Assembly (NCBI GenBank): GCA_046714475.1
Contig: JBKKAU010000178.1
Coordinates: forward strand, 1-47,806
From: Thermoanaerobaculia bacterium
GTDB lineage: Bacteria; Acidobacteriota; Thermoanaerobaculia; Multivoradales; UBA5704
Direction of reading: 5' to 3'
Length of the DNA stretch: 47,806 nucleotides
Shown here in pieces: positions 12,946-26,693 of the stretch; within the stretch, counting starts at the first letter, position 1, and each line of letters starts with the position of its first letter. The notes beneath the pieces were generated by a model that saw nothing but the letters and a program-made list of their open reading frames with translations, was not told the origin of the DNA and ran no database searches. The position numbers and the translations under genes are program-made.

Positions 12946-13692
12946 TTGCTGAAGGATTTTCTGCGGAGGGTGAGCCTCTTCCAGGACCTGGAGGAGGAGC
13001 GGTTGGCGCAGCTCACCAGGCTCGTCCAGGAGGAGACCTATCCTTCGCGGCACGTCATCTACCGCGAAGGGGAGGCGGTCGACGCCCTGTACCTGGTGCG
13101 GGAGGGGCTGGTCACCGTGTTCCGCGAGGTGCCCGGCCAGCCGATGGAGATCCTCGCCCGTCTGGAACAGGGCGGGTTCTTCGGCGAGATGGGGCTGCTC
13201 AACGACAAGGCCCGCCGTTTCGCCTCCGCCCGTACCCTTCTGCCCACCACCCTGCTGCGGATCGATAAAAAAGACCTGATCGACCTGCTCTCCGCGAATC
13301 CGGGGCTGGAGCTCAAGCTTCGCGCCGAGGTGATCCGCCGGCACGGCGTGAGCGTCTCCTCCCTGCTCCCCCTGGCGGGCCAGCGGGACGTGCGCATCCG
13401 GCTGGGGGCCGAGGCCCTGGTGGAGCTCCCGGACGGCGGCCGGCAGGTCATGACCCTGGAGAACCTCGCGATCGGCGGCATCGGCCTCTCCGGAGCCCCG
13501 GACGGCTGGCAGCCGGGTCAGCCGGTGCGCTTCACGCTCGGGCACCGCGAGGAGCCGGCGCTGCTTTCGGTCCAGGGGACCGTCACCTGGCGCGAGGGCG
13601 ATGCGGTGGGCATCGCCTTCGACCCCGGGACCGCCGGCAACGCCGCCCTGCTCCACCGGGTGCTGCGCAGCTTTCTCGACGCCAAACGGTAG
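12946..13692 (+). CDS. Cyclic-nucleotide-binding domain fused to a PilZ domain
   Basis: TTG at 12946 lies 7 nt after GGAGG (the track uses GTG 12895). cNMP domain (FQDLEEERL..., FFGEMGLL...ARRFASA). C-terminal PilZ-like (QRDVRIR..., ENLAIGGIG, VQGTVTWREGDAVGIAF). Confidence 0.8.
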   Translation: MLKDFLRRVSLFQDLEEERLAQLTRLVQEETYPSRHVIYREGEAVDALYLVREGLVTVFREVPGQPMEILARLEQGGFFGEMGLLNDKARRFASARTLLPTTLLRIDKKDLIDLLSANPGLELKLRAEVIRRHGVSVSSLLPLAGQRDVRIRLGAEALVELPDGGRQVMTLENLAIGGIGLSGAPDGWQPGQPVRFTLGHREEPALLSVQGTVTWREGDAVGIAFDPGTAGNAALLHRVLRSFLDAKR

Positions 13693-13717
13693 GCCTGAAC
13701 AAAAGGAGGAGAACGGC

Positions 13718-14335
13718 ATGGCCGACGCGGGCAACGCACAGGGGATCGACGTCTCTCATTTCCAAGGCAGCGTCCACTGGCCGTCCGTCCGCCAGGCGGG
13801 GAAGGTCTTCGCCTTCGCCAAGGCGACGGAGGGCCTCACCTACACCGATCCGCAGCTCGCCACCAACTGGGAGGGGATCAAGGCCGCCGGGCTCGTGCGC
13901 GGGGCGTATCACTTCTTCGTGCCGGCGGACGACGCCCTGAGCCAGGCCGAGTACTTCCTCGCGACCGTTCATCTCGCTCCCGGCGATCTGCCGCCGGTCC
14001 TCGACGTCGAGAAGAACACCGGGGTGAGCGCCGCTCAGCTCTGGCAGGGGGTAGGGGTCTGGCTGCGGGAGGTGGAGGCGCGGACCGGCCGGCAGCCGAT
14101 GATCTACGTCGCTCCGGGATTCTGGAACGGCAACTCCCCGGACCTCTCGCTCACTCAATATCCCCTCTGGCTGGCCGACTACGCCACCCAGCCGACGCTT
14201 CCCCATGGCTGGACGGCCTGGCGTTTCTGGCAGTACTCCCAGACCGGGTCGGTCCCCGGCGTCTCCGGCCAGTTCGACCTCGACGAGTTCAACGGCACGG
14301 CCGAGCAGCTGCTGGCGTTCGCGAACGGCGTTTAG
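13718..14335 (+). CDS. GH25 lysozyme (muramidase), no signal peptide
   Basis: AGGAGGAG RBS before ATG 13718. GIDVSHFQGSVHWPSV..., FAFAKATEG, PPVLDVE. It lies 25 nt after the PilZ gene. Confidence 0.85.
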   Translation: MADAGNAQGIDVSHFQGSVHWPSVRQAGKVFAFAKATEGLTYTDPQLATNWEGIKAAGLVRGAYHFFVPADDALSQAEYFLATVHLAPGDLPPVLDVEKNTGVSAAQLWQGVGVWLREVEARTGRQPMIYVAPGFWNGNSPDLSLTQYPLWLADYATQPTLPHGWTAWRFWQYSQTGSVPGVSGQFDLDEFNGTAEQLLAFANGV

Positions 14336-14350
14336 CCTCAGAGCCCCAGT

Positions 14351-14630
14351 GAACGCGGTATCTCCGGCAATTCCACCGCAGCGTCCGTAGATCCACCGCA
14401 TCGTAGCTGGCGGCGCGGTGAATCTGGCGGCGGCGCGGTAGAGCTGTGGACGGCGCGGTGGAGTTCCTGGCGCTGCGGTGGATCTGGAGACGATGCGGTG
14501 TATCCGGAGACTCTACCGCACCGTCTCGAGATCTACCGCAGCGTAACCAGCGGCGCGGTGGATCTGGCGACGGTGCGGTGGAATTCCTGGCGGCGCGGTG
14601 AATCCAGCTCTGGTGCGGTGGACGCCGGGG
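14351..14630. repeat. Array of 14 units with exact 20-bp period; 13-bp core CG(N)(Y)GCGGT(R)GA(W) in mixed orientation (F R R F F F F F R R F F F F)
   Basis: Read directly. GCGGTG/GCGGTA ends at 14360, 14420, 14440, 14460, 14480, 14500, 14560, 14580, 14600 and 14620. The inverted form (C/T)ACCGCA ends at 14380, 14400, 14520 and 14540. A 20-bp period is not a multiple of 3, so it is non-coding. The array lies between convergent gene ends. Confidence 0.9.
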
Positions 14631-14651
14631 AGATGCGAGGGCAGACCTGGT

Positions 14652-15206
14652 TTAGAGCCGGGCGCGGGTCTGCTCGCCGAGCCAGAGGTGATGCCGCTCG
14701 TGGGCGGCGAAAGCGCGCAGAGCGGAGTAGAGGTTGTAGCGGATCCGCGCGTCGAACGGCGAAGTGATCTTCACCTTGTCGATGGCGAGCCCGGCGGCTT
14801 GCGGAAGGAAGCCGACCACCTCGGTCTGCAAGCTGTCGAACTCGCCCAGAACCGTCTCCTTCGGCTCCAGGCTCCCCGGCACAAACTGCGCCGTGGTCTT
14901 GACCTTCACCCGGACCGGCGGCTCCGCCATCCGGCCCAGCAGCCAGCCGACGAAGTCGCGGCGGAACGGTCCGTGGCCGGTGAGGCCGCGCAACCGCGCC
15001 TCCTCGGCCGCCTGGCGGAAGAGGGGGAGATAGGCGCGGGTGGTGAGGTTCAGGTGCGCCACCTGCTCGCCGATCGACCAGCGGCCCGGGTCGGGCCGGT
15101 GCCGCCACTGCTCTTCGGTGAGGCCGTCGGCCAGGCGATGGGCGCGGGCCTGGGCCTCGGCGAGCTCAGTCGCCAGCGATTGGAGCTGCGTCGGCATCGT
15201 GTCCAT
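14652..15206 (-). CDS. DinB-superfamily (DinB_2-like) protein
   Basis: The start MDTMPTQLQS lies after GAGGA. Helical-bundle pattern with conserved His residues (EQVAHLNL..., AAHERHHLW). Confidence 0.8.
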   Translation of the reverse strand: MDTMPTQLQSLATELAEAQARAHRLADGLTEEQWRHRPDPGRWSIGEQVAHLNLTTRAYLPLFRQAAEEARLRGLTGHGPFRRDFVGWLLGRMAEPPVRVKVKTTAQFVPGSLEPKETVLGEFDSLQTEVVGFLPQAAGLAIDKVKITSPFDARIRYNLYSALRAFAAHERHHLWLGEQTRARL

Positions 15207-15636
15207 GGTCCTCAAGGATATCGGAGTCCTGCCGCCTGAGCACGTCAAGCCCGGCCCGTATGGCGAGAGAGTGGCTTTGTCATTCGCGCTGCGTGCCGAC
15301 GAGTTGGCGAGCTAAGGGCTGTGCGAGAGACGCGGTAAAAACTTCTGTCAGTGGAGTTCGGTAAGGTCCTATTAACAGTAGGCGCGGAGCCGCTCGCCGG
15401 CGCGGCTAGGCGGGCGATGGCCTAGCTGGGTGGGACGCGAGGGAAGCAGACCCCTTCATCCTGGTCTTCCACTCCGCCGTCCTTAAGACCCCGCGGTTGC
15501 TGTCGACTGTGCTCCCTGCTAATCACATGAGGGAAGAGGCCTGAGAAGGCGGCCTCTCCGTCCGCGCGAGATTCAGAGCTGAAGCGGGCAGCAACACGTC
15601 GCAATTCGACAGCCCTTTTTCCTTCGTAGCTATTCA

Positions 15637-15885
15637 CTAGATCGGGTTAGGGCACCTAGTCCCATCATAAAAGCGCTTATTCGGATAGTATCCGGAAGGA
15701 CAAGGGTTCACCTCGTAAACACAGCACTGTTCGTACGACGTCTGCACATATACAGTAACTGAGTCGGGGTTGGAGGTCGGGCTTCCCACGCATAGGACCT
15801 TGCAGGTGCCCGTAGAGGACCGGACTGTCGATAGGGCACTGAAGACTAGGGCGGCGCCTAGGACGGAACAACGAATTAGCTTCAT
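15637..15885 (-). CDS. Small secreted Cys-rich protein (82 aa)
   Basis: AAGGA RBS. Sec signal MKLIRCSVLGAALVFSALSTVRS. The mature part has 6 Cys (TCKVLC...QCC...NPC...TRC). Lies in the AT-richer island. Confidence 0.5.
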   Translation of the reverse strand: MKLIRCSVLGAALVFSALSTVRSSTGTCKVLCVGSPTSNPDSVTVYVQTSYEQCCVYEVNPCPSGYYPNKRFYDGTRCPNPI

Positions 15886-16351
15886 AGGTTTCCTTTCAGG
15901 GAACGCCAGAGCCCCATTTTAGCATAGATATAGACCCGAACAGTGGGGCTTGGCCGGCCCCTCGCGCCGGCGAAAAAAGCGACGGTCAACAAGAGCCGGC
16001 AGCAGGACCGGGGCTGTGGCCGGGCTGCAGGCGGCCTGCGTCTCGTCGGCAGCACCTTGCGGCCGGAGCTCGAACGAGCTGAAGGGCTAGGCTCCCTCGG
16101 AGAACGTCCAGTTCTCAGAGGTGCGCCGCGAGCTTTCTAGCGCACTACCAAGCCTAGCCCGCCGGCCGGCGGGCAACTCCTCCTCGGAAAGGGAGGGGGG
16201 ATGCCGGTGCGGAGACTAACGCTGTCCCGAAGAATCTCTGCGATGCACCATGATTGATGAAGGAACTGTGCGAGTGCCACAAGTGCGGGCAGCCGGGCAA
16301 CTTCGGTGGACGGATCCCGCCCCTGGAGTGGGGCAGAAAGGACAGAATGCC

Positions 16352-16573
16352 ATGAAGAGAGGTCGGAGGAGGCTTTCGCTGTCGAAGGAGACTTTAGCTC
16401 GTTTGGGTTCTCGGCACTTGGAGAATGCCGCCGGTGGCCTTGGTAGCTACGTGCCAACTCTGGAAGGTCACTCAAACCTATACTGTGCGTCAGAAGCGCA
16501 GGGTACTTGTAGTGCTGGGAGCGAGGAATGCCACACGTCGGGAGACCCTTGCACTTATACCGTGCGCTGTTAG
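16352..16573 (+). CDS. Candidate precursor peptide with double-glycine type leader and Cys-rich core (73 aa)
   Basis: Internal ATG at 16352 after AAAGGA. Leader MKRGRRRLSLSKETLARLGSRHLENAAGG, then LGSYVPTLEGHSNLYCASEAQGTCSAGSEECHTSGDPCTYTVRC. Confidence 0.45.
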   Translation: MKRGRRRLSLSKETLARLGSRHLENAAGGLGSYVPTLEGHSNLYCASEAQGTCSAGSEECHTSGDPCTYTVRC

Positions 16574-18257: not shown

Positions 18258-19556
18258 TCAATAGTTGACAACGTCGACAGCACGGGAGACCGACTTGGTC
18301 TGGACCGGGCTGCTGCTGTCCGTAACGGTCACCTGGATCGTGAAGTCCGCGTGGTTGTAGCAGACGGACCGGGAGTAGCTGGTGCCGGTGCCCACCTGGG
18401 CTCCGTTGTAGTACCACTTGTAGGAGTAGGGTGTCGAGCCGCCGCTCACCGCGGCGTTCCAGGTCGCCGTGACGCAGCCGCCGGTGGGTAAGAAGATGGA
18501 GGAGGGGCCACTCACAGTGACGTCGAGGGGGTCGGGGGGCGGGGCATAGGTGAGGTCGACGGCGCGGGAGTCCGACTTGGTCTGGACCGGGCTGCTGCTG
18601 TCGGCCGCGGTCGCCTGGATCGTGAAGTCCGCGTGGTCGTGGCAGACCGACCGGGAGTAGCTGGTGCCGGTGCCCACCTGGGTCCCGTTGTAGTACCACA
18701 CGTACGAGTAGGGGATTGTGCCGCCGCTCGCCGAGGCGCTCCAGGTCTGGGTGGAGCAGGTGGCGGTGGTGAAGTCGACGGAGGAGGGGCCGCTCATCGT
18801 GACTTCGAGGGCGGGCGGCGGACACGAGTAGTTGATGTCGCTGCTGGAGTAATGGAGTTCCTCGGCCGGGATCGACACGGACGCATAGGCCTCCGAAAAG
18901 CAGTCCAGCTCTCCGTTCGTGCTCGCCGAGGCCGAGCTGGTGATGTCGGTACCCGTGCGCGGATTCTCCTGGCTATTGACCGTCATGGTGGTCCCCTGGG
19001 TGGCACGGGCGTAGGCATAGGCATAGGTGTCGCCGGAGTGGCCACAGTCGCAGTTGAACATAGCCTGTGCGGTCGCTCTCGCGCCCAGGGTGCTCGTCAG
19101 GGGATTTGCATCCGCGGTGGCGCTGTAGCAGTCGGCGCTGCAGCTTGCGCCCTCGACGGCTTCGGTCATGCTCGACATCCCCTCTGGCGCCTTCCTCATC
19201 TTCCTCATCTCCCGCTTGGCGCTGGCGATTCTGACGCTCAGGCCGTCGATGGCCTCGGCGAGGTCTTCGGACGGGTAGCTCTCGTGCTCGATCATCATGG
19301 ACTTGAGCTGGCGGGTGAGCTCGTTGATGATCCAGGCCAGTCCTCCCCGGCCAAAAGCTAGGTGCTCCACCTTGTTCGGCCCCAGCCGGCGCTCGAACAC
19401 CCCCTGAGAGATCTGCTTCCAACCCTCCGCCTCCATTCTGGCCTTGGCATCGTCCGGTTGCTTCTTCATGGGGCCGGCTGCCGAAAGACCGTCGCCTCCC
19501 AGGAGAATTGTGACACCGAGGCAGATGGCGGCGGTCCAGCACTTCCTGCGAATCAT
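18258..19556 (-). CDS. Secreted protein with two tandem PKD/Ig-like repeats
   Basis: ATG 19556 lies 6 nt after AAGGAG. Signal MIRRKCWTAAICLGVTILLGG. Two 94-aa repeats (VT.SGPSS...SGG..PYSY.WYYNG.QVGTGTSYSRSVC..HADFTIQ.T..DSSSPVQTKS). Confidence 0.75.
   Translation of the reverse strand: MIRRKCWTAAICLGVTILLGGDGLSAAGPMKKQPDDAKARMEAEGWKQISQGVFERRLGPNKVEHLAFGRGGLAWIINELTRQLKSMMIEHESYPSEDLAEAIDGLSVRIASAKREMRKMRKAPEGMSSMTEAVEGASCSADCYSATADANPLTSTLGARATAQAMFNCDCGHSGDTYAYAYARATQGTTMTVNSQENPRTGTDITSSASASTNGELDCFSEAYASVSIPAEELHYSSSDINYSCPPPALEVTMSGPSSVDFTTATCSTQTWSASASGGTIPYSYVWYYNGTQVGTGTSYSRSVCHDHADFTIQATAADSSSPVQTKSDSRAVDLTYAPPPDPLDVTVSGPSSIFLPTGGCVTATWNAAVSGGSTPYSYKWYYNGAQVGTGTSYSRSVCYNHADFTIQVTVTDSSSPVQTKSVSRAVDVVNY
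18273..18836. repeat. Two copies of a 282-bp tandem direct repeat inside the PKD-like gene
   Basis: GTCGAC...CCGACTTGGTCTGGACCGGGCTGCTGCTGTC begins at 18273 and again at 18555. Long identical runs are seen by eye. Confidence 0.8.
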
Positions 19557-19664
19557 GTACAGCTCCTTCATCAACGGCAAAGGCCGGCCTCCATGGCCGG
19601 CCTTGGACAAACAGCCATGAACTTTTGGCAACGTGCAAAGACTATGTATAGAGCTGCGTGGAAG

Positions 19665-20386: not shown

Positions 20387-20839
20387 TCAAGACCGGTCGA
20401 TGCGCTGACTTTGCGGCGCTCGCAGGCTCCTCCAACGTGCAATAGTCCCCAGGAGGTATACCGCGCCTGTTGCCAAGGCAACCAGAGAGAAGACGATCTC
20501 CTTGGGCGCGAGCGCCGTTGAGGACGCTACCACCTGATAGATCTGAGGGAAAACCGCCAGCCCGCGGAGGGCATAAATGGCACCGATCACAATCAAGGCT
20601 GTCAGAAGGAGCGGGAGCCGGCGGATGACTCCGGCTCCCGATAGAGCGTAAACGCCGAAGGCGGCGAACACGGCGACGAGGAGCAGCGTGATCACGGCCG
20701 GCAGGGGCGAGCCAGCTTGGGCGAGGCTGGCCATCTCTTCCCCTGCCCCGAAGTACCGGTATGCCGGAGCCCCGGCGACGACGATCCCCACGTGCAGGAC
20801 CGCAATGGCAAAGCTGAGAGCCGCGCCTATCTTCAGCAT
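20387..20839 (-). CDS. Small integral membrane protein (about 4 TM)
   Basis: MLKIGAALSFAIAVLHVGIVVAG..., with alternating hydrophobic segments. The track ORF is extended upstream. Confidence 0.6.
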   Translation of the reverse strand: MLKIGAALSFAIAVLHVGIVVAGAPAYRYFGAGEEMASLAQAGSPLPAVITLLLVAVFAAFGVYALSGAGVIRRLPLLLTALIVIGAIYALRGLAVFPQIYQVVASSTALAPKEIVFSLVALATGAVYLLGTIARWRSLRAPQSQRIDRS

Positions 20840-21160
20840 CTGATCCCTCCGACGTGTCCTCAGTCCCAATGCAGGGTCGTCTCCCGATCGATCACCACCC
20901 AGCGCCCGTCGCGGCGTTCGAGAAGTCCGGGTCTCCGCGTTGCCGCCGCGGCTGTCTGGAAACAAGCCCATGTCGTACCAGGAGAGAGCGGCGGTGGACG
21001 CGATCCAACGGGTAGCCCTCAGGGCGGGATCTCGCATGCCTGCTTCCTGTTCGGGACGGGGACGTTTTTGTCTGGTCCCTGTCTTTTAGACCTGCGCACC
21101 GCGGTGCCGGTTCCGAAGAGGCTCCTTGCCTGGTACGGTCGGGACGCTATACTCCGCTCA

Positions 21161-21520
21161 ATGAGCAATCTGCATGACGAGGAGGCGCGCCGCATCGCGG
21201 AGCTGCTGGATCGCCTCGTGCGGCTGTCGGGCCGTTCGCGCCGGTCGATCGAGCGGGACCTGGGGCTCGGCAGCTCAGGCCTGAGCAAGATCCTCGGCGG
21301 AACGGTCCGGCTGCAGCTCAGCCATGTGCTCATGATCGTGGAGGCGTTGGGAGTCCAGCCGTGGGAATTCTTCCGCTGGGCGTATCCGTCCCACGGCAGG
21401 ACGAGCCCGTTGATGGAGAAGGTCCATGAGCTGACCTCGGAGGATGAGGAGGAGGATTCCCCCGAGTTCGACGACCGGGTGAAGCGCTCCCTCCTCCGTC
21501 TGCTGCGCGAGGATTCTTAA
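21161..21520 (+). CDS. Small HTH (Xre/Cro-like) protein with acidic tail
   Basis: MSNLHDEEARRIAELLDRLVRLSGRSRRSIERDLGLGSSGLSKILGGTVRLQLSHVLMIVEALGV. No clear RBS, so the start is uncertain. Confidence 0.6.
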   Translation: MSNLHDEEARRIAELLDRLVRLSGRSRRSIERDLGLGSSGLSKILGGTVRLQLSHVLMIVEALGVQPWEFFRWAYPSHGRTSPLMEKVHELTSEDEEEDSPEFDDRVKRSLLRLLREDS

Positions 21521-22866
21521 GGCGCGAACTGGAGACGCGGCTCCCATTCCAGGCGAAGGAGGAAGGCGAGGATCCGGTGCACCAGTCCGGGCGTGGCCTC
21601 GGAGCGCGCGCAGGCCTGGTTGAGGTAGCGGATCGCTTTGACCGCCTCGCTCTGGATGCCGAGGTCTTCGAAAACCTCCAGGACCTCCTGAGCGAGCTCC
21701 CGCACCTCCTCGGCTCTCTCCTGTTGCAGCCAGACACCAGCAAGCTCCAAACCCATGAGAGCGGCGTCGTACTCCTGGTCCCTATAGAGGAAGCCCTCCC
21801 GGACCTCACGGAAAATCCTTTCGGCCCGCCGGAGCTTGCCGAGCCCCGCGAAGATCTTGCCCTCGACCCAACGGAGACGGGCCAGGTTCAGAGGATCCTC
21901 AGCGAACGATTGCCGGAGGTTGCTTCTCAAGAGGACCTGAGCGGCCTCGCGGTAACGGCCGCTGTCCACCATCGCATTGAGCAAAGCATGGGTACCGATC
22001 GCCTCCAGCTTCGGGTCCCGCCATGGATCGATCTCGGCAAGACCTTTCTGGAGCAGTGCGACGGCTTCTTCGGGTTCTTCCTCATTTCTGAGGTTCATGC
22101 CCTTCGTGATGAGTGTTCGAGCCGCCAGGTGGGTCTCTCCCATCTCTGAATAGAGCTGATAGAGAAGATCGAGAAGCTCACGGGCGGCTCCCAATCGGCG
22201 CTGGTCAGTTCGCAGAGACACCCGCAGGTCCAGAACGCGCGCGAGGAGCAGCGCGTCCCCTGTCCCTTCGTCCAGCAAGACCTCGGCTCGGGCGAAGGCG
22301 TCCTCGGCGCTCTCGAACTGATCGTTCAGCCGGTATGCGTTGCCCAACTCGGCCCAGGCCCGTGCCTGGACGTCGGCGATCCTGCTTTCTCCATAGATGC
22401 GGGAATCCAGATTCTGGGCCGCAACCCGGGCCGCGAACGCGAGGAAGAGCATCTCCCGGACATCACGGAAGCGCTCCTCATAGCTCAGATGTAAGAGGGC
22501 CTCTACCAGGGGCCAGCCGTGGAGGTTCGTTTCAGCCTCTTCTGTGATGCCGCTGATCCCTTGCGAGGAGCTTCCAGCGGCGGCAACGAGGTCCGCGAGT
22601 TGGGCATGTTCTCCCTGCCAGAAGGCCTCTTGGCGTCTCGCCCTGGCAAGGGCACGATCAATGGCCAGGTCGTAGGCCTTATCCTCTGCCCAAAATAGGA
22701 CTTCGACGGCGGGCGCATGCTCGGGGAGCACCTCGGCGATCTTGGCGAGCTTCGTTCCGCAGTGAGGACAACCTTCCAGCAGATGGCGAACAACACCCCG
22801 CAGCTCCGCTGACCGAAGACGGCCTGATATGAACAGGCCCACTTCTTCATCCGTCAAGTGGCTCAA
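21517..22866 (-). CDS. Zinc-finger (H-x3-C-x2-C, anti-sigma ZAS-like) N-terminus fused to a long TPR region
   Basis: TTG start after GGGAGGG. VVRHLLEGCPHCGTKL. TPR-like helical repeats run throughout. Confidence 0.75.
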   Translation of the reverse strand: MSHLTDEEVGLFISGRLRSAELRGVVRHLLEGCPHCGTKLAKIAEVLPEHAPAVEVLFWAEDKAYDLAIDRALARARRQEAFWQGEHAQLADLVAAAGSSSQGISGITEEAETNLHGWPLVEALLHLSYEERFRDVREMLFLAFAARVAAQNLDSRIYGESRIADVQARAWAELGNAYRLNDQFESAEDAFARAEVLLDEGTGDALLLARVLDLRVSLRTDQRRLGAARELLDLLYQLYSEMGETHLAARTLITKGMNLRNEEEPEEAVALLQKGLAEIDPWRDPKLEAIGTHALLNAMVDSGRYREAAQVLLRSNLRQSFAEDPLNLARLRWVEGKIFAGLGKLRRAERIFREVREGFLYRDQEYDAALMGLELAGVWLQQERAEEVRELAQEVLEVFEDLGIQSEAVKAIRYLNQACARSEATPGLVHRILAFLLRLEWEPRLQFAP

Positions 22867-23472: not shown

Positions 23473-24993
23473 TCAGTCTCCCAGCCGTACCACCCGGACG
23501 GAGCCGCGCCCTCCCTCGTTCGGGGCGAGGAAGATCACCTCCGCGCGGCCGTCGCCGTCCAGGTCGACGAGGGAGGGCGTACCGATTTCGACCACGCCGC
23601 CGGCTTCAACCCGCGTCCCCTCGGTGCCGATGCTCATCTCGACGGTCTTTCCGGACGGGGTGGGACGGAAAGTGGCGGTGCTCCAGGGCTTGCGCTCCAG
23701 AACGTTCCTGCCCTTGGGGTCCGTCAGCCCGGCGAAGGCGAGCATGCGGTCCCGGCTCACGGCCACGAGGTCCGCGATCCCGTCGCCGTTGAGGTCCTGA
23801 CCATAGCTCCAGTCCTCGGCCTCCACGTCCAGCACCGTCTTGCGCCCTCCCGGCTGGAAGCCTCCGTCCCCCCGGCCCAGCCAGGCCTGGGCGACCAGGG
23901 TCTTGCCGGCGAGCCCCTCGGGCTGGACCACGACGAGGTCTTCGCGGCCGTCGCGGTCGACGTCCAGCACGGCGGGGACCACGCCGTTCCAGCGGCGGCT
24001 CTCGGTCTCGGCCGCGAGCACCGGCCGGCGGCCGGCGCGGCTGCGGTCGGCCACGAGCGGAAAGACGCGGAGCCTCTGCTTGACGAACACGCCCACCTTC
24101 TCGGCGTCGGCGGTGGTGACGATCAGGAAGGGCCGGTTGTCGAGCAGGACGTACCAGCTCGCGATCACCTCTTCGGGACCGGGGAGCTGCGACCAGGCTT
24201 CGATGCGGCGCGCCGGCTCCGGGGCCGCCGGATCGATCAGCACGGTCCGCAGGCGGGTCCTTCCATGCGCCTCCGGGCCGGCGGCGTAAAGGGACGGGCC
24301 GCCGGGACGCGGCAGGGCCGTCACCCGGGGTGTCGAGAGGAGCAGCCCGGCCGCATCGCGGCGAGCGCGCACGGGCAGCTCGTGCGCGGCCGTCAAGGTC
24401 AGAGCCCCGGCGCCGTCCGATGTGTAGGCGCGGATCCCGCCGACGCCGACGACCTCGAGCTGCCGGCTCGCCCGGCGGGCGACGGGCGGCCAACGGGCAG
24501 GCCGGGAGACGGCCAGGTCCAGGGCGGGGTCGGAGAGGAGAGGCCGGGGAGAGAGCGCGGGCCGCTCGATGGGACCCAGGGCGTGGAGCTTGCCCGGTTC
24601 GCCGAGCAGCAGCTCCTGGCCGCCGTCGCCGTCCAGGTCGATCGCCTCCAGGGTGTCGGCCGCGGCGGGCAGGCCGCGTAGCGCCTCGCGCAACGCCCCG
24701 CTGCCTTGCGGGTCGAGCAGGAACAGCGAGCGGGGGCCGCCAGCGGCGGCGCCTGCAGGGCCTTCCGGCGCCACCAGCAAAGCGATCCGGCAGCGGCCGT
24801 CCGCGCCGGTGGGCAGGGCGGCGGAGAGCACGCGCCCGGGCAGGACGGCGTCGATCCAGCGCGCGCCGCCGGACTCTCCCGACGTCAAGCCGACCGGTCT
24901 GGGCGGCTGGGGGGCCGGCGGCGCGGCGGCGGCGAGCCAGGGGGTGAGAAACAGGGCCGCGAGGCACCCGCTTCTCAAAACGCCGCGCTTCAA
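23473..24993 (-). CDS. FG-GAP/VCBS repeat protein, secreted
   Basis: TTG at 24993 lies 6 nt after GGAGG and overlaps the upstream stop (TTGA). Signal-like LKRGVLRSGCLAALFLTPWLAAAA. Ca-loop motifs IDLDGDGGQELLL, DVDRDGREDLVV, DLNGDGIADLV, DLDGDGRAEVIF. Confidence 0.8.
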   Translation of the reverse strand: MKRGVLRSGCLAALFLTPWLAAAAPPAPQPPRPVGLTSGESGGARWIDAVLPGRVLSAALPTGADGRCRIALLVAPEGPAGAAAGGPRSLFLLDPQGSGALREALRGLPAAADTLEAIDLDGDGGQELLLGEPGKLHALGPIERPALSPRPLLSDPALDLAVSRPARWPPVARRASRQLEVVGVGGIRAYTSDGAGALTLTAAHELPVRARRDAAGLLLSTPRVTALPRPGGPSLYAAGPEAHGRTRLRTVLIDPAAPEPARRIEAWSQLPGPEEVIASWYVLLDNRPFLIVTTADAEKVGVFVKQRLRVFPLVADRSRAGRRPVLAAETESRRWNGVVPAVLDVDRDGREDLVVVQPEGLAGKTLVAQAWLGRGDGGFQPGGRKTVLDVEAEDWSYGQDLNGDGIADLVAVSRDRMLAFAGLTDPKGRNVLERKPWSTATFRPTPSGKTVEMSIGTEGTRVEAGGVVEIGTPSLVDLDGDGRAEVIFLAPNEGGRGSVRVVRLGD

Positions 24994-26693
24994 GCGGCAC
25001 CTCCGCTCAGGTAGAAGTCCAGACGGACCGGCGGGGTGAGTCCCGGCTCGACGGCCTTGGCCGGTTGGATCACCAGCAGGTCGGAGAGGCTGTCGCCGTC
25101 GAAGTCGCGCACTTGGACGAGCCCGAGGTCGCGCGGCGGCTCCTGGAGCTGGATCGCGAGGTCGGGCCGCGCGGGGTAGGAGCAATCGGCACGTCCCCGG
25201 TGGATCGTCACCGCCTTGCCGCGCCCCATCTGGAGGAAGTCGACGCGGCCGTCGCCGTCGAAGTCGCCGGCGAACTGCGACAGGTGGCCGAGCCTCAGGT
25301 TGTCGAGGTCGAGGTTGAACTTGCCCGAGAGGTCGAGCCCTTTCACTTCACGGAAGAGGCCTTCCGGGTCCTGACACCAGACATGGAAGTCGAGCCCGAT
25401 GCCGATGCGCCGCACGGCCATGATCTTGACCGCCTGGAAGACCGAGAAGTCGAGCGTCAGGGTGACCAGGTCCTGCCGGCCGTCGCCGTTCAGGTCCTGG
25501 AAACCTCCCGGCAGACGGATGTCGGACTCGCCGCCACCGAACGCATAGCCCGAGACCTTGAGCTCCTGATAGGGCTTCGGCTCCATGGAGAGGTCCGGCC
25601 GCATGCGGTGGAAGCCGTAGACGTGGGGCGGCCGGCGGGCATGAGCGAGCTCCTGGCGCATGGAGGCGTTGTCGCCGACCGGGACCTCGCGCGCGGTGAC
25701 GTACTCCGCGGTACCCATGCCCCCGGCATCGCCCAGGTTGCCGACATGGACGACGCGGGCGGTATCCCGGGGCCGTCTCGGGTCGACGTCCGGATCTTTC
25801 CGCGGCTCGCCGAGCGGGGCGGTGGGACCGGAGAAGCGGCCTCCCCCCAGGTTGCGGAAGATCCGGAAGCCCTCCCACTCCCGACCCGGACGGGCGAGGA
25901 GCAGCTCCGGCAGGCGGTCGCCGTTGACGTCGCGGACCTCGGGCAACGGGTAGTGGCCGACCAGCGAGCCGCCGGAGCGCCGCGGCGGATCGACGGGAAA
26001 GCGCAGCCGCGCGGCCGGCTCGGTCCGCAGCCCTTCGGGGCCGCTCAGGTAGACGGCGGCGCCGTCGGCGGCGGGGAAGAGCAGGTCCGGCGTACGGTCG
26101 CCGTCCAGGTCGCGCGTCATGCCGAGGTTGGGGACGAAGGTACCGGCGCCCGCGAGCACCGGCCGGTCCTCCAGGACCGGTTCCAGGGCCAGAGCGCCGT
26201 CGCGGAGCCGGAGGGCCGAGAGGCCGCTGTCGGTGAGCGCCACGATGGGCAGCCCGGGAGGGCCGGCTTCGAGCGAGAGGACGGAGGTCTCGAGAGGGAG
26301 GACCGGCCCCTCGGGCGCGAACGTGCCGTCGGGCCGGCCAGGGAAGACCCGCACCTCGCGGCGGTCCATCAACGCGGGGATGACGGTGAGGACCTCGACC
26401 AGGCCCTCGACGCTGTCGAGGCCGGCCTCCGCCGCGCCCGGCACCTCGCGCATCTCGACCGTCTCCTCGATGCCGATCCGGTCCCAGCCGGACCAGGCCA
26501 CGACCACGACGAGGTCGCGCAGACCGTCGCCGTCGACGTCGGCCGGCACGACCACCGACGGGGCGCCGGGGAGGTCGAGGGCCGCGTACCGGAGCGCCAG
26601 CTCGCCGCGGCGCGCGGCGGCCGACGGAGCGGCGAGAGTGAGCAGGAGGGGCAGGCCGAGGACGGTGTACCGCGAGGCTGAAGCGAAGCTCAT
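24990..26693 (-). CDS. FG-GAP/VCBS repeat protein, secreted
   Basis: GGGAGGA RBS. Signal peptide. Repeats DVDGDGLRDLVVV, DLDGDRTPDLLF, DVNGDRLPELLL, DLNGDGRQDLVT, DFDGDGRVDFLQ, DFDGDSLSDLLV. Confidence 0.85.
   Translation of the reverse strand: MSFASASRYTVLGLPLLLTLAAPSAAARRGELALRYAALDLPGAPSVVVPADVDGDGLRDLVVVVAWSGWDRIGIEETVEMREVPGAAEAGLDSVEGLVEVLTVIPALMDRREVRVFPGRPDGTFAPEGPVLPLETSVLSLEAGPPGLPIVALTDSGLSALRLRDGALALEPVLEDRPVLAGAGTFVPNLGMTRDLDGDRTPDLLFPAADGAAVYLSGPEGLRTEPAARLRFPVDPPRRSGGSLVGHYPLPEVRDVNGDRLPELLLARPGREWEGFRIFRNLGGGRFSGPTAPLGEPRKDPDVDPRRPRDTARVVHVGNLGDAGGMGTAEYVTAREVPVGDNASMRQELAHARRPPHVYGFHRMRPDLSMEPKPYQELKVSGYAFGGGESDIRLPGGFQDLNGDGRQDLVTLTLDFSVFQAVKIMAVRRIGIGLDFHVWCQDPEGLFREVKGLDLSGKFNLDLDNLRLGHLSQFAGDFDGDGRVDFLQMGRGKAVTIHRGRADCSYPARPDLAIQLQEPPRDLGLVQVRDFDGDSLSDLLVIQPAKAVEPGLTPPVRLDFYLSGGAA

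Follow-up and report, generated by a model that had tools for sequence, protein, structure and literature searches.

A phased array of 20-bp boxes between convergent genes of a Thermoanaerobaculia bacterium is a stand-alone member of a dispersed Acidobacteriota family and a candidate platform for a small winged-helix protein

Phased repeat arrays that are bound by small proteins are known mainly from plasmids, as iterons, parC (pSK41 and R1) and tubC (pBtoxis). Here we describe an array of the same design in a 47,806-nucleotide stretch of DNA from a Thermoanaerobaculia bacterium (contig JBKKAU010000178.1, positions 1 to 47,806; hereafter the window), in which 14 units occupy positions 14351-14630 between two convergent genes. 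The array is a stand-alone member of a dispersed Acidobacteriota family of phased box arrays. The design familiar from plasmids here belongs to a family that is chromosomal, occupies many loci, is apparently mobile and occurs in a soil phylum that is abundant but little studied, and the arrays are tied to an unnamed protein family of about 400 clusters at 50% identity, whose members we call AAP. On balance, we favour the reading that the array is a platform for the cooperative binding of AAP, represented in the window by a stand-alone copy between convergent genes.

In tubC-TubR (the type III partition system of Bacillus thuringiensis pBtoxis), phased direct repeats lie directly upstream of a small winged-helix gene, and TubR coats the array cooperatively and autoregulates; the C-terminal domain of AAP is likewise a predicted winged helix. 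The two differ in that no TubZ or other motor gene is found here, that they share no sequence similarity, and that TubR lacks the 60-residue N-terminal helix and Pro-rich linker of AAP. The tubC array has seven repeats of 12 bp, whereas AAP-family arrays have about 10-27 units, are chromosomal, occur several to a genome and in many cases lie far from any AAP gene. In parC-ParR (type II; R1, and pSK41 with 20-bp repeats) and in the omega-heptad arrays of pSM19035, one small protein binds each repeat cooperatively on a strict lattice, direct and inverted repeats are tolerated in phase, and the array overlaps the promoter of the binder's own operon. ParR and omega are ribbon-helix-helix proteins, however, whereas AAP is a predicted winged-helix protein, and neither ParM nor a plasmid context accompanies the present arrays. 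Iteron/Rep systems (pSC101, F, P1, RK2 and R6K) share with the family direct repeats of 17-22 bp, a winged-helix binder that is encoded adjacently, and an extra repeat at the promoter, which in iteron systems gives autorepression. AAP is nevertheless half the size of a WH1-WH2 Rep, DnaA boxes and an AT-rich unwinding element are absent, the family arrays have three to five times more units and are chromosomal and multi-locus, and the window copy sits between convergent coding regions. The design works like tubC/TubR, parC/ParR, the omega heptads and iteron/Rep, but the arrays lack the features that define membership in each of these systems.

Repetitive extragenic palindromic elements (REP/BIME) and mycobacterial MIRUs resemble the arrays in being dispersed intergenic repeats of variable copy number, often after 3' ends or between convergent genes, and in being present or absent as insertions between relatives. 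REP units, however, are hairpin-forming imperfect palindromes with a link to RAYT transposases, whereas the family unit is asymmetric, runs head to tail on an exact 20-bp lattice and is linked to a gene for a winged-helix protein rather than a transposase. No palindromic unit, GTAG/CTAC head or consistent RAYT partner was found for the arrays, and hairpins arise only where whole units are inverted; a Y1_Tnp gene beside an AAP-array module was seen once (L243). MIRUs are 46-100 bp long and are not known to have a dedicated binding protein. In architecture alone, AAP also resembles H-NS, Lsr2 and MvaT, in which a flexible linker connects a helix for oligomerisation at the N-terminus to a DNA-binding domain at the C-terminus, and one AAP homologue (P0073) is labelled 'DNA-binding protein H-NS' by JGI. 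The DNA-binding domains are unrelated in sequence and fold, and the preference of H-NS-type proteins is for AT-rich DNA that has no defined phased box, in contrast to the linkage of AAP with GC-rich, lattice-borne boxes.

Reading of the sequence over positions 14100-14900 bore out the initial annotation, which had described 14 copies in both orientations with exact 20-bp phasing: the lattice runs through all 14 units without a phase slip. Each unit joins one asymmetric box of 11-13 bp (window form CGNYGCGGTRGA) to a free linker of about 8 bp, and the linkers of the array are related to one another. The unit core is YGCGGTRGA and the window consensus, with inverted units oriented first, is CGgyGCGGTrgAtct. 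Oriented in this way, all 14 units contain GCGGT and 13 of the 14 the terminal box A, while GGA-type box ends are found in 10-13/14 units and the CG two bases upstream in 12-13/14. The motif YGCGGTRKA occurs 18 times in the window, 11 times inside the array, against a shuffle expectation of 3.15 +/- 1.9 (0/100 shuffles reach 18). Units 2, 3, 9 and 10 (starts 14371, 14391, 14511 and 14531) are inverted, with sequences TCCACCGCA / TCTACCGCA, and keep the register that had been claimed for them, their ACCGC occupying offsets 4-8 as GCGGT does in forward units. The asymmetry of the box shifts its centre by 2 bp in the inverted units.

The array further divides into two 140-bp halves of seven units each, both oriented + - - + + + +. 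The two inverted blocks thus go back to one inversion that was followed by a seven-unit duplication. The halves are identical at 95/140 positions without any indel, and their mismatches are unevenly placed, affecting 36/77 linker positions but 9/63 positions of the 9-bp boxes (Fisher p = 5e-5). The core is therefore more conserved than the linkers; that box and spacing were kept while linkers drifted argues against a dead relic, although homogenisation mechanisms may provide another source of the likeness between boxes. The view that the array is non-coding, is not a CRISPR and reflects more than slippage is supported. CRISPRs have repeats of 23-50 bp, unique spacers of 26-72 bp and usually cas genes; we rejected a CRISPR array on the 20-bp period, the related linkers of about 8 bp and the lack of cas genes among the 20 neighbouring open reading frames (ORFs).

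Arrays of the same type are found well beyond the window. A species-level scan (one genome per species, with two boxes 20 bp apart as the query) returned mostly single chance matches, together with real arrays in metagenome-assembled genomes (MAGs) of Thermoanaerobaculia (L035, L053, L083 and L106) and at two Holophagales loci, L076 and L120, which come from one MAG. Since L053 and L106 share one 5.9-Mb contig, at least two arrays per genome are seen in two MAGs, in genome pieces of 8 kb; REP/BIME elements number in the hundreds per genome. A metagenome scan with a three-box query added about 30 arrays with 10-27 units each, whose contig names, the sole indication of source, point mostly to soil and rhizosphere samples. 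The family consensus is aCGTTGCGGTGGA, with the logo a.GTTGCGGTGGA followed by a free linker (769 units from 41 arrays). Among 36 non-redundant arrays, 469/584 distances between neighbours equal exactly 20 bp, and 536/584 equal a multiple of it. In most family arrays all units point one way and hairpins are absent; mixed orientation like that of the window array is also found in L174, and of the genuine inverted units in the family 48/49 fall on the lattice, at offset -1 (31 units) or 0 (17 units). At the orthologous loci L129, L179 and L233, stand-alone arrays have persisted with common edge units, while copy number and linkers differ; arrays are thus passed on by descent and change by whole units. 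The window array fits this family in its number of units on the 20-bp lattice (at least 10 in the family, 14 without a slip here), in its box, which matches aCGTTGCGGTGGA with free linkers and the consensus CG-N-Y-GCGGT-R-G-A, and in its host, the family range being Thermoanaerobaculia or Holophagae. The initial annotation had taken absence from close relatives, or scattering as a generic REP-like element, to speak against a functional array. The array is in fact absent from close relatives and its type is dispersed, but the core is conserved throughout a bacterial class, and the arrays are no generic REP element.

The genes beside the arrays vary by locus (MgsA, RHS, Uma2, a type I restriction subunit, PilT and others). 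An all-against-all comparison of neighbouring ORFs identified a single recurrent neighbour family, AAP, of about 170 aa, and no other conserved neighbour of stand-alone arrays; a GGDEF-EAL cluster was rejected as a candidate, being merely a common domain combined with local synteny. The AAP start codon follows directly after the array in 10/33 loci that were found without targeting AAP. Where AAP loci were fetched deliberately (L243, L245 and L247), an array lies upstream in each, and every AAP gene examined is directly preceded by an array. Clustering of the family at 90% identity gives 233 clusters and at 50% identity 396 representatives (E <= 1e-3); the proteins are almost all 160-175 aa long and are annotated as hypothetical throughout, and AAP matches no family in Pfam, NCBIfam or PADLOC. 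In the AF2 model (pLDDT 82), a 60-residue helix (residues 7-66), probably a coiled coil, is joined by a disordered Pro-rich linker to a winged helix (residues 92-165). Foldseek returned only winged-helix DNA binders, all of them weak matches (Fur/Zur, PadR, the Orc1 winged-helix domain and TubR), and a profile search of the PDB gave a weak match of ArsR type that spans recognition helix and wing. Conservation within AAP is highest in the recognition-helix segment RTASDVLRR.

The layout upstream of AAP genes is also conserved in kind. Boxes of the form TCCACCGCAAC run towards the gene and are followed by an element, GTGCTATCNT, that resembles an extended -10; about 20 nt further on comes one last box (TTCACCGCAACCTGGA; TTCACCGCAAC), then the ribosome-binding site and ATGAGC. 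Two distant AAP relatives differ from the core family in the recognition helix (NRQVSVALRW in P0380 and RSVSSSLRR in P0362). Arrays lie upstream of these two as well, but their period is 21 bp and their cores are different (TGCCGCAACCAC in L256, GCCGCGTACGAAC in L258), so that protein and box vary together. The linkage of gene and array, the promoter layout and this co-variation make AAP the likely ligand of the box.

The history of the window copy can be read from five syntenic relatives, which were gathered through orthologues of the GH25 lysozyme gene to the left of the array. As the initial annotation stated, this gene and a DinB_2 family gene converge on the array, and a gene for a cNMP-binding/PilZ protein lies upstream of GH25. 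The closest named matches of the GH25 protein come from Thermoanaerobaculia MAGs, and its identity to the orthologues is 87% in L255, 82% in L250, 81% in L251/L252 and 79% in L253. The gene order BNR-protein, cNMP/PilZ, GH25, DinB_2 is kept in L250 and L253 (in L253 with LigD upstream as well), L251/L252 have two additional genes between cNMP/PilZ and GH25, and on the short contig of L255 only GH25 and DinB_2 are visible. In all five relatives the array is absent at this locus, and the stop codons of GH25 and DinB_2 overlap by 4 bp, leaving no intergenic DNA (Table 1). The window therefore carries an insertion of about 314 bp, which is recent and lies between formerly overlapping stop codons. 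The GTTTAG pair that borders it may represent a 6-bp target-site duplication. The first 184 bp of the insert are identical in a Logan contig from an independent assembly (L001), which breaks inside the array.

The exact lattice, the conservation of the box, the placement of inverted units on the lattice and the dedicated winged-helix gene all fit cooperative binding at every second helical turn. In the mechanism that we propose, one winged-helix domain would dock on each box, every two turns along one face of the DNA, and the coiled coils of neighbouring AAP molecules would join into a cooperative filament. The flexible linker would allow binding to an inverted box provided that the box is on the lattice. 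At the AAP gene itself, autoregulation would come from the array together with the single box that follows the -10 element and precedes the ribosome-binding site; stand-alone arrays would be additional copies that AAP binds in trans, most of them lying between convergent genes. The window copy would have arrived as the insertion described above, possibly with the target duplication. The proposal of the initial annotation that a protein binds cooperatively along the helix face thus agrees with the box conservation, the family-wide phasing and the linked winged-helix gene. The sequences establish the anatomy of the array, its family, the linkage of gene and array, the insertion and the selective conservation of box and phase; binding itself is inferred from linkage and co-variation. 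Likewise, the host genome of the window would be expected to encode AAP, and possible cellular roles include a nucleoprotein block or insulator, the bridging of arrays, and titration.

Several observations weigh against AAP binding as the explanation of the window array. No AAP homologue was found within the 47.8-kb window by tblastn or profile search, which places this copy in the stand-alone subclass together with L053, L083, L106 and L192. Its boxes depart from the family at the first T of TTGCGG (present in 0-1/14 units) and could be a decaying or differently recognised variant. The conserved box could be recognised by a mobilising enzyme instead of AAP, and the process that creates inversions, not selection, might account for the register of the inverted units. 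As a duplication, GTTTAG is ambiguous, because the longer GH25 3' end of L251 also matches CCTGGTTTAG at the right junction, and the statistics on flank orientation (8 of the 13 stand-alone arrays with both flanks visible fill convergent gaps with 6-90 bp to spare) are based on crude ORF calls.

A reading that draws on several of these points is that the arrays are selfish or neutral mobile DNA, that is, non-autonomous satellite-like repeats spread by transposition, recombination or slippage, whose box serves the mobilising enzyme and whose stand-alone copies have no function. The absence of the array from all five closest relatives together with the direct repeat on both sides, the many unrelated genomic contexts, the preponderance of convergent gaps (a typical safe insertion site) and the differences in copy number at orthologous loci are all as expected for such elements. 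Transposase genes moreover adjoin some AAP-array modules: a Y1_Tnp gene (IS200/RAYT-type) lies directly downstream of AAP in L243 (6645-7181), a Transposase_31 gene upstream in L247 (4406-5398) and an rve-type insertion sequence upstream in L076 (1793-3890), and a link between these genes and array mobility is possible. No transposase is consistently linked to the arrays, however, terminal inverted repeats or conserved termini were not found among them, and a search for a close copy of the window array found no near-identical one elsewhere. Phase and box are also strictly conserved in old, diverged arrays and kept at orthologous loci, which points to ongoing constraint. We thus regard mobility without function as rather unlikely to be the whole account, although mobile DNA and AAP binding are compatible and both can hold. 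A broader combination of the two is a tentative possibility, in which AAP and its arrays form an undescribed chromosomal system akin to a satellite repeat with its box-binding protein. AAP would build long, phase-locked filaments on arrays of 12-27 boxes at its own gene and at many stand-alone arrays, the arrays would spread into convergent gaps in a transposition-like manner (with the 6-bp target duplication), and the filaments would form nucleoprotein barriers there or connect distant loci. Such barriers or bridges might insulate convergent transcription, organise the chromosome, or serve for partition or anchoring without a motor.

The inverted units raise a further alternative at the level of RNA. 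Units 9-10 form inverted repeats of 28-29 bp with both units 7-8 and units 11-12, and the inverted units fold very stably (minimum free energy -174.8 kcal/mol, z = -5.8) through arms of 28-29 nt that are 86-90% complementary. The array also lies directly after two convergent stop codons, and a perfect box hairpin ends some other arrays (L035). It might therefore be transcribed as the 3' untranslated region of the GH25 operon, of DinB_2 or of both, and serve as a bidirectional terminator or stabiliser hairpin or as a sponge for a GGA-motif protein; the number of GGA motifs in CsrB-type sponge RNAs is comparable to the 14-27 units of these arrays. Yet a search of positions 13000-16500 against Rfam at a permissive threshold gave only chance miRNA matches far below threshold, with no CsrB/RsmZ-type or other RNA family, and a consensus scan found no promoter-like or intrinsic-terminator-like site. 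The unidirectional, hairpin-free form of most family arrays also speaks against an RNA element, as does the position of the -10 element at AAP genes, which lies downstream of the main array and so leaves the array mostly outside that transcript. An exact 20/21-bp period is a property of duplex DNA that an RNA sponge does not need, and the relatives, with their overlapping stop codons, do without a terminator. On these grounds we consider an RNA-level role improbable.

The initial annotation had compared the array to iterons and ParR-type centromeres and had raised an origin or terminus role. Direct units of about 20 bp with some inverted do resemble iterons, parC and tubC, 14 units at exactly 20 bp agree with iterons of 17-22 bp on a helical lattice, family arrays precede a gene for a small winged-helix protein in the way that tubC precedes tubR, and TubR is among the Foldseek matches of AAP, though at rank 46 (E 0.08). 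An integrated or extrachromosomal replicon with a plasmid-type iteron origin or a ParR/TubR-type centromere is nevertheless a most improbable source of the array, and the analogy fails on several counts. Rep, ParA, ParM and TubZ genes were not found near the window array or the family loci checked; Pfam scans of the 20 neighbouring ORFs revealed no Rep initiator (Rep_3/RepA, WH1-WH2) and no other rep, par or plasmid gene, AAP has no Rep match, and no motor gene is present in the window or beside AAP genes. A centromere array would stand upstream of an operon for its binder and motor (ParM, TubZ or ParA), whereas here it lies between convergent 3' ends. The setting is chromosomal, in a gene order common to relatives that lack the array, and two MAGs have at least two arrays per chromosome. 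No AT-rich unwinding region, DnaA boxes or replicon setting was found around the array, where GC is 0.68, and the cumulative GC skew rises steadily through it without a turn, contrary to an origin or terminus. The array is missing in relatives at up to 87% protein identity (L250, L251/L252, L253 and L255), so that it is not an essential origin, terminus or centromere, and its type is dispersed. Searches of PLSDB plasmids with the array DNA and with AAP gave no match; in IMG/VR the AAP profile found nothing, and a scan for two adjacent boxes found two chance matches and no array. The resemblance of TTATCCACC, found in Holophagales and L083 units, to a DnaA box was rejected because the invariant part is TCCACCGCAA and not TTATCCACA, the TTA part being a lineage-specific linker. 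A Chi-like site, a sigma-54 promoter and an uptake signal were considered and dropped because spacing or motif did not fit and an array would not be expected.

Our literature search on the box sequence, on tandem repeats of Thermoanaerobaculia and on nucleoid proteins of Acidobacteria found nothing relevant, the box sequence giving primer matches only; the array family and AAP are thus apparently undescribed. If AAP binds the box, the arrays offer a simple, testable model for large sequence-specific nucleoprotein filaments on a bacterial chromosome, and natural orthogonal pairs of box and protein (20-bp and 21-bp lattices with different cores) for synthetic biology. Binding would also explain frequent breaks in Acidobacteriota metagenome assemblies. 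Short-read contigs often end inside arrays (L001 and many AAP contigs), and most AAP-bearing contigs are 1-3 kb long, so that arrays appear to be a systematic cause of such breaks. In annotation, such arrays should not be called CRISPRs, origins or centromeres.

Table 1. Coordinates of the array, its insertion and the flanking genes in the window, with the overlapping stop codons of the relatives
Feature	Position	Strand	Basis
GH25 lysozyme gene, left flank; 3' end abuts the insert	13718..14335	+	Pfam
Left GTTTAG of the 6-bp direct repeat; contains the GH25 stop TAG	14330..14335	.	
Lineage-specific insertion, 314 bp, holding the whole array	14336..14649	.	Absence in syntenic relatives
Unit 1, weak box GAACGCGGTATCT	14351..14370	+	Sequence
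Units 2-3, inverted boxes TCCACCGCAGCG and TCCACCGCATCG; pentamer in register with the forward lattice	14371..14410	-	
Units 4-8, forward boxes CGNYGCGGTRRA; second 140-bp half starts at unit 8	14411..14510	+	
Units 9-10, inverted boxes TCTACCGCACCG and TCTACCGCAGCG	14511..14550	-	
Units 11-14, forward boxes	14551..14630	+	
Degenerate 15th unit GAGATGCGAGGGCAGACCTG, right edge of the insert	14631..14649	+	
Right GTTTAG; contains the DinB_2 stop (TTA on +, = TAA on -)	14650..14655	.	
DinB_2 family gene, right flank; 3' end abuts the insert	14652..15206	-	Pfam
Stop-codon overlaps in relatives	L250 4859-4862; L251 5621-5624; L253 5615-5618; L255 947-950		

The Pfam matches of the 20 neighbouring ORFs include LigD, the BNR protein, cNMP/PilZ, GH25, DinB_2, TPR, FG-GAP, CHAT and M16, and a tRNA scan found no tRNA genes in the window. 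Between positions 15300 and 26700, GC is lower in parts (0.60-0.65) and small ORFs lack Pfam matches; the genes there include an HTH protein (20717-21520), a TPR protein (21517-22866) and two FG-GAP proteins (23473-26693). L250 has no counterpart of this region, its DinB_2 gene lying about 2.5 kb from the CHAT-domain gene, so that a second, separate variable region adjoins the array. Within it, a 282-bp tandem duplication at 18273-18811 (1.9 copies, 84% identical) falls inside the ORF 18258-19631 (-), which has weak Ig-like matches only.

We further note an ORF of about 166 aa beside stand-alone arrays at three orthologous loci (L083 2580-3128(-), L218 6244-6792 and L234 6183-6731) and, at roughly 40% identity by eye and in the other orientation, in L185 (1163-1849); it has no match in Pfam, NCBIfam or PADLOC. 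Several repeats returned by the scans were set apart from the family. The arrays of L029 (Streptomyces), L086, L088 and L119 are unrelated simple repeats that merely contain GCGGTGGA, as are period-10 arrays of CTCCACCGCC, which were picked up only through this motif in the metagenome contigs L127 (1032-1358), L150 (1210-1365), L170 (1221-1318) and L219 (7-174). The 20-bp arrays of GGAAGCGGTGGGGAGTGATA in L138 (1765-3132, about 47 detected boxes over about 1.4 kb), L169 (3245-4032) and L148 (1735-2119), also metagenome contigs, were likewise judged simple repeats containing GCGGTGGA and unrelated to the box-plus-linker family; their units are near-identical at all positions. In Streptomyces tibetensis (L063 6905-7960), 58 copies of an 18-bp repeat with TCCACCGC probably form a coding repeat.

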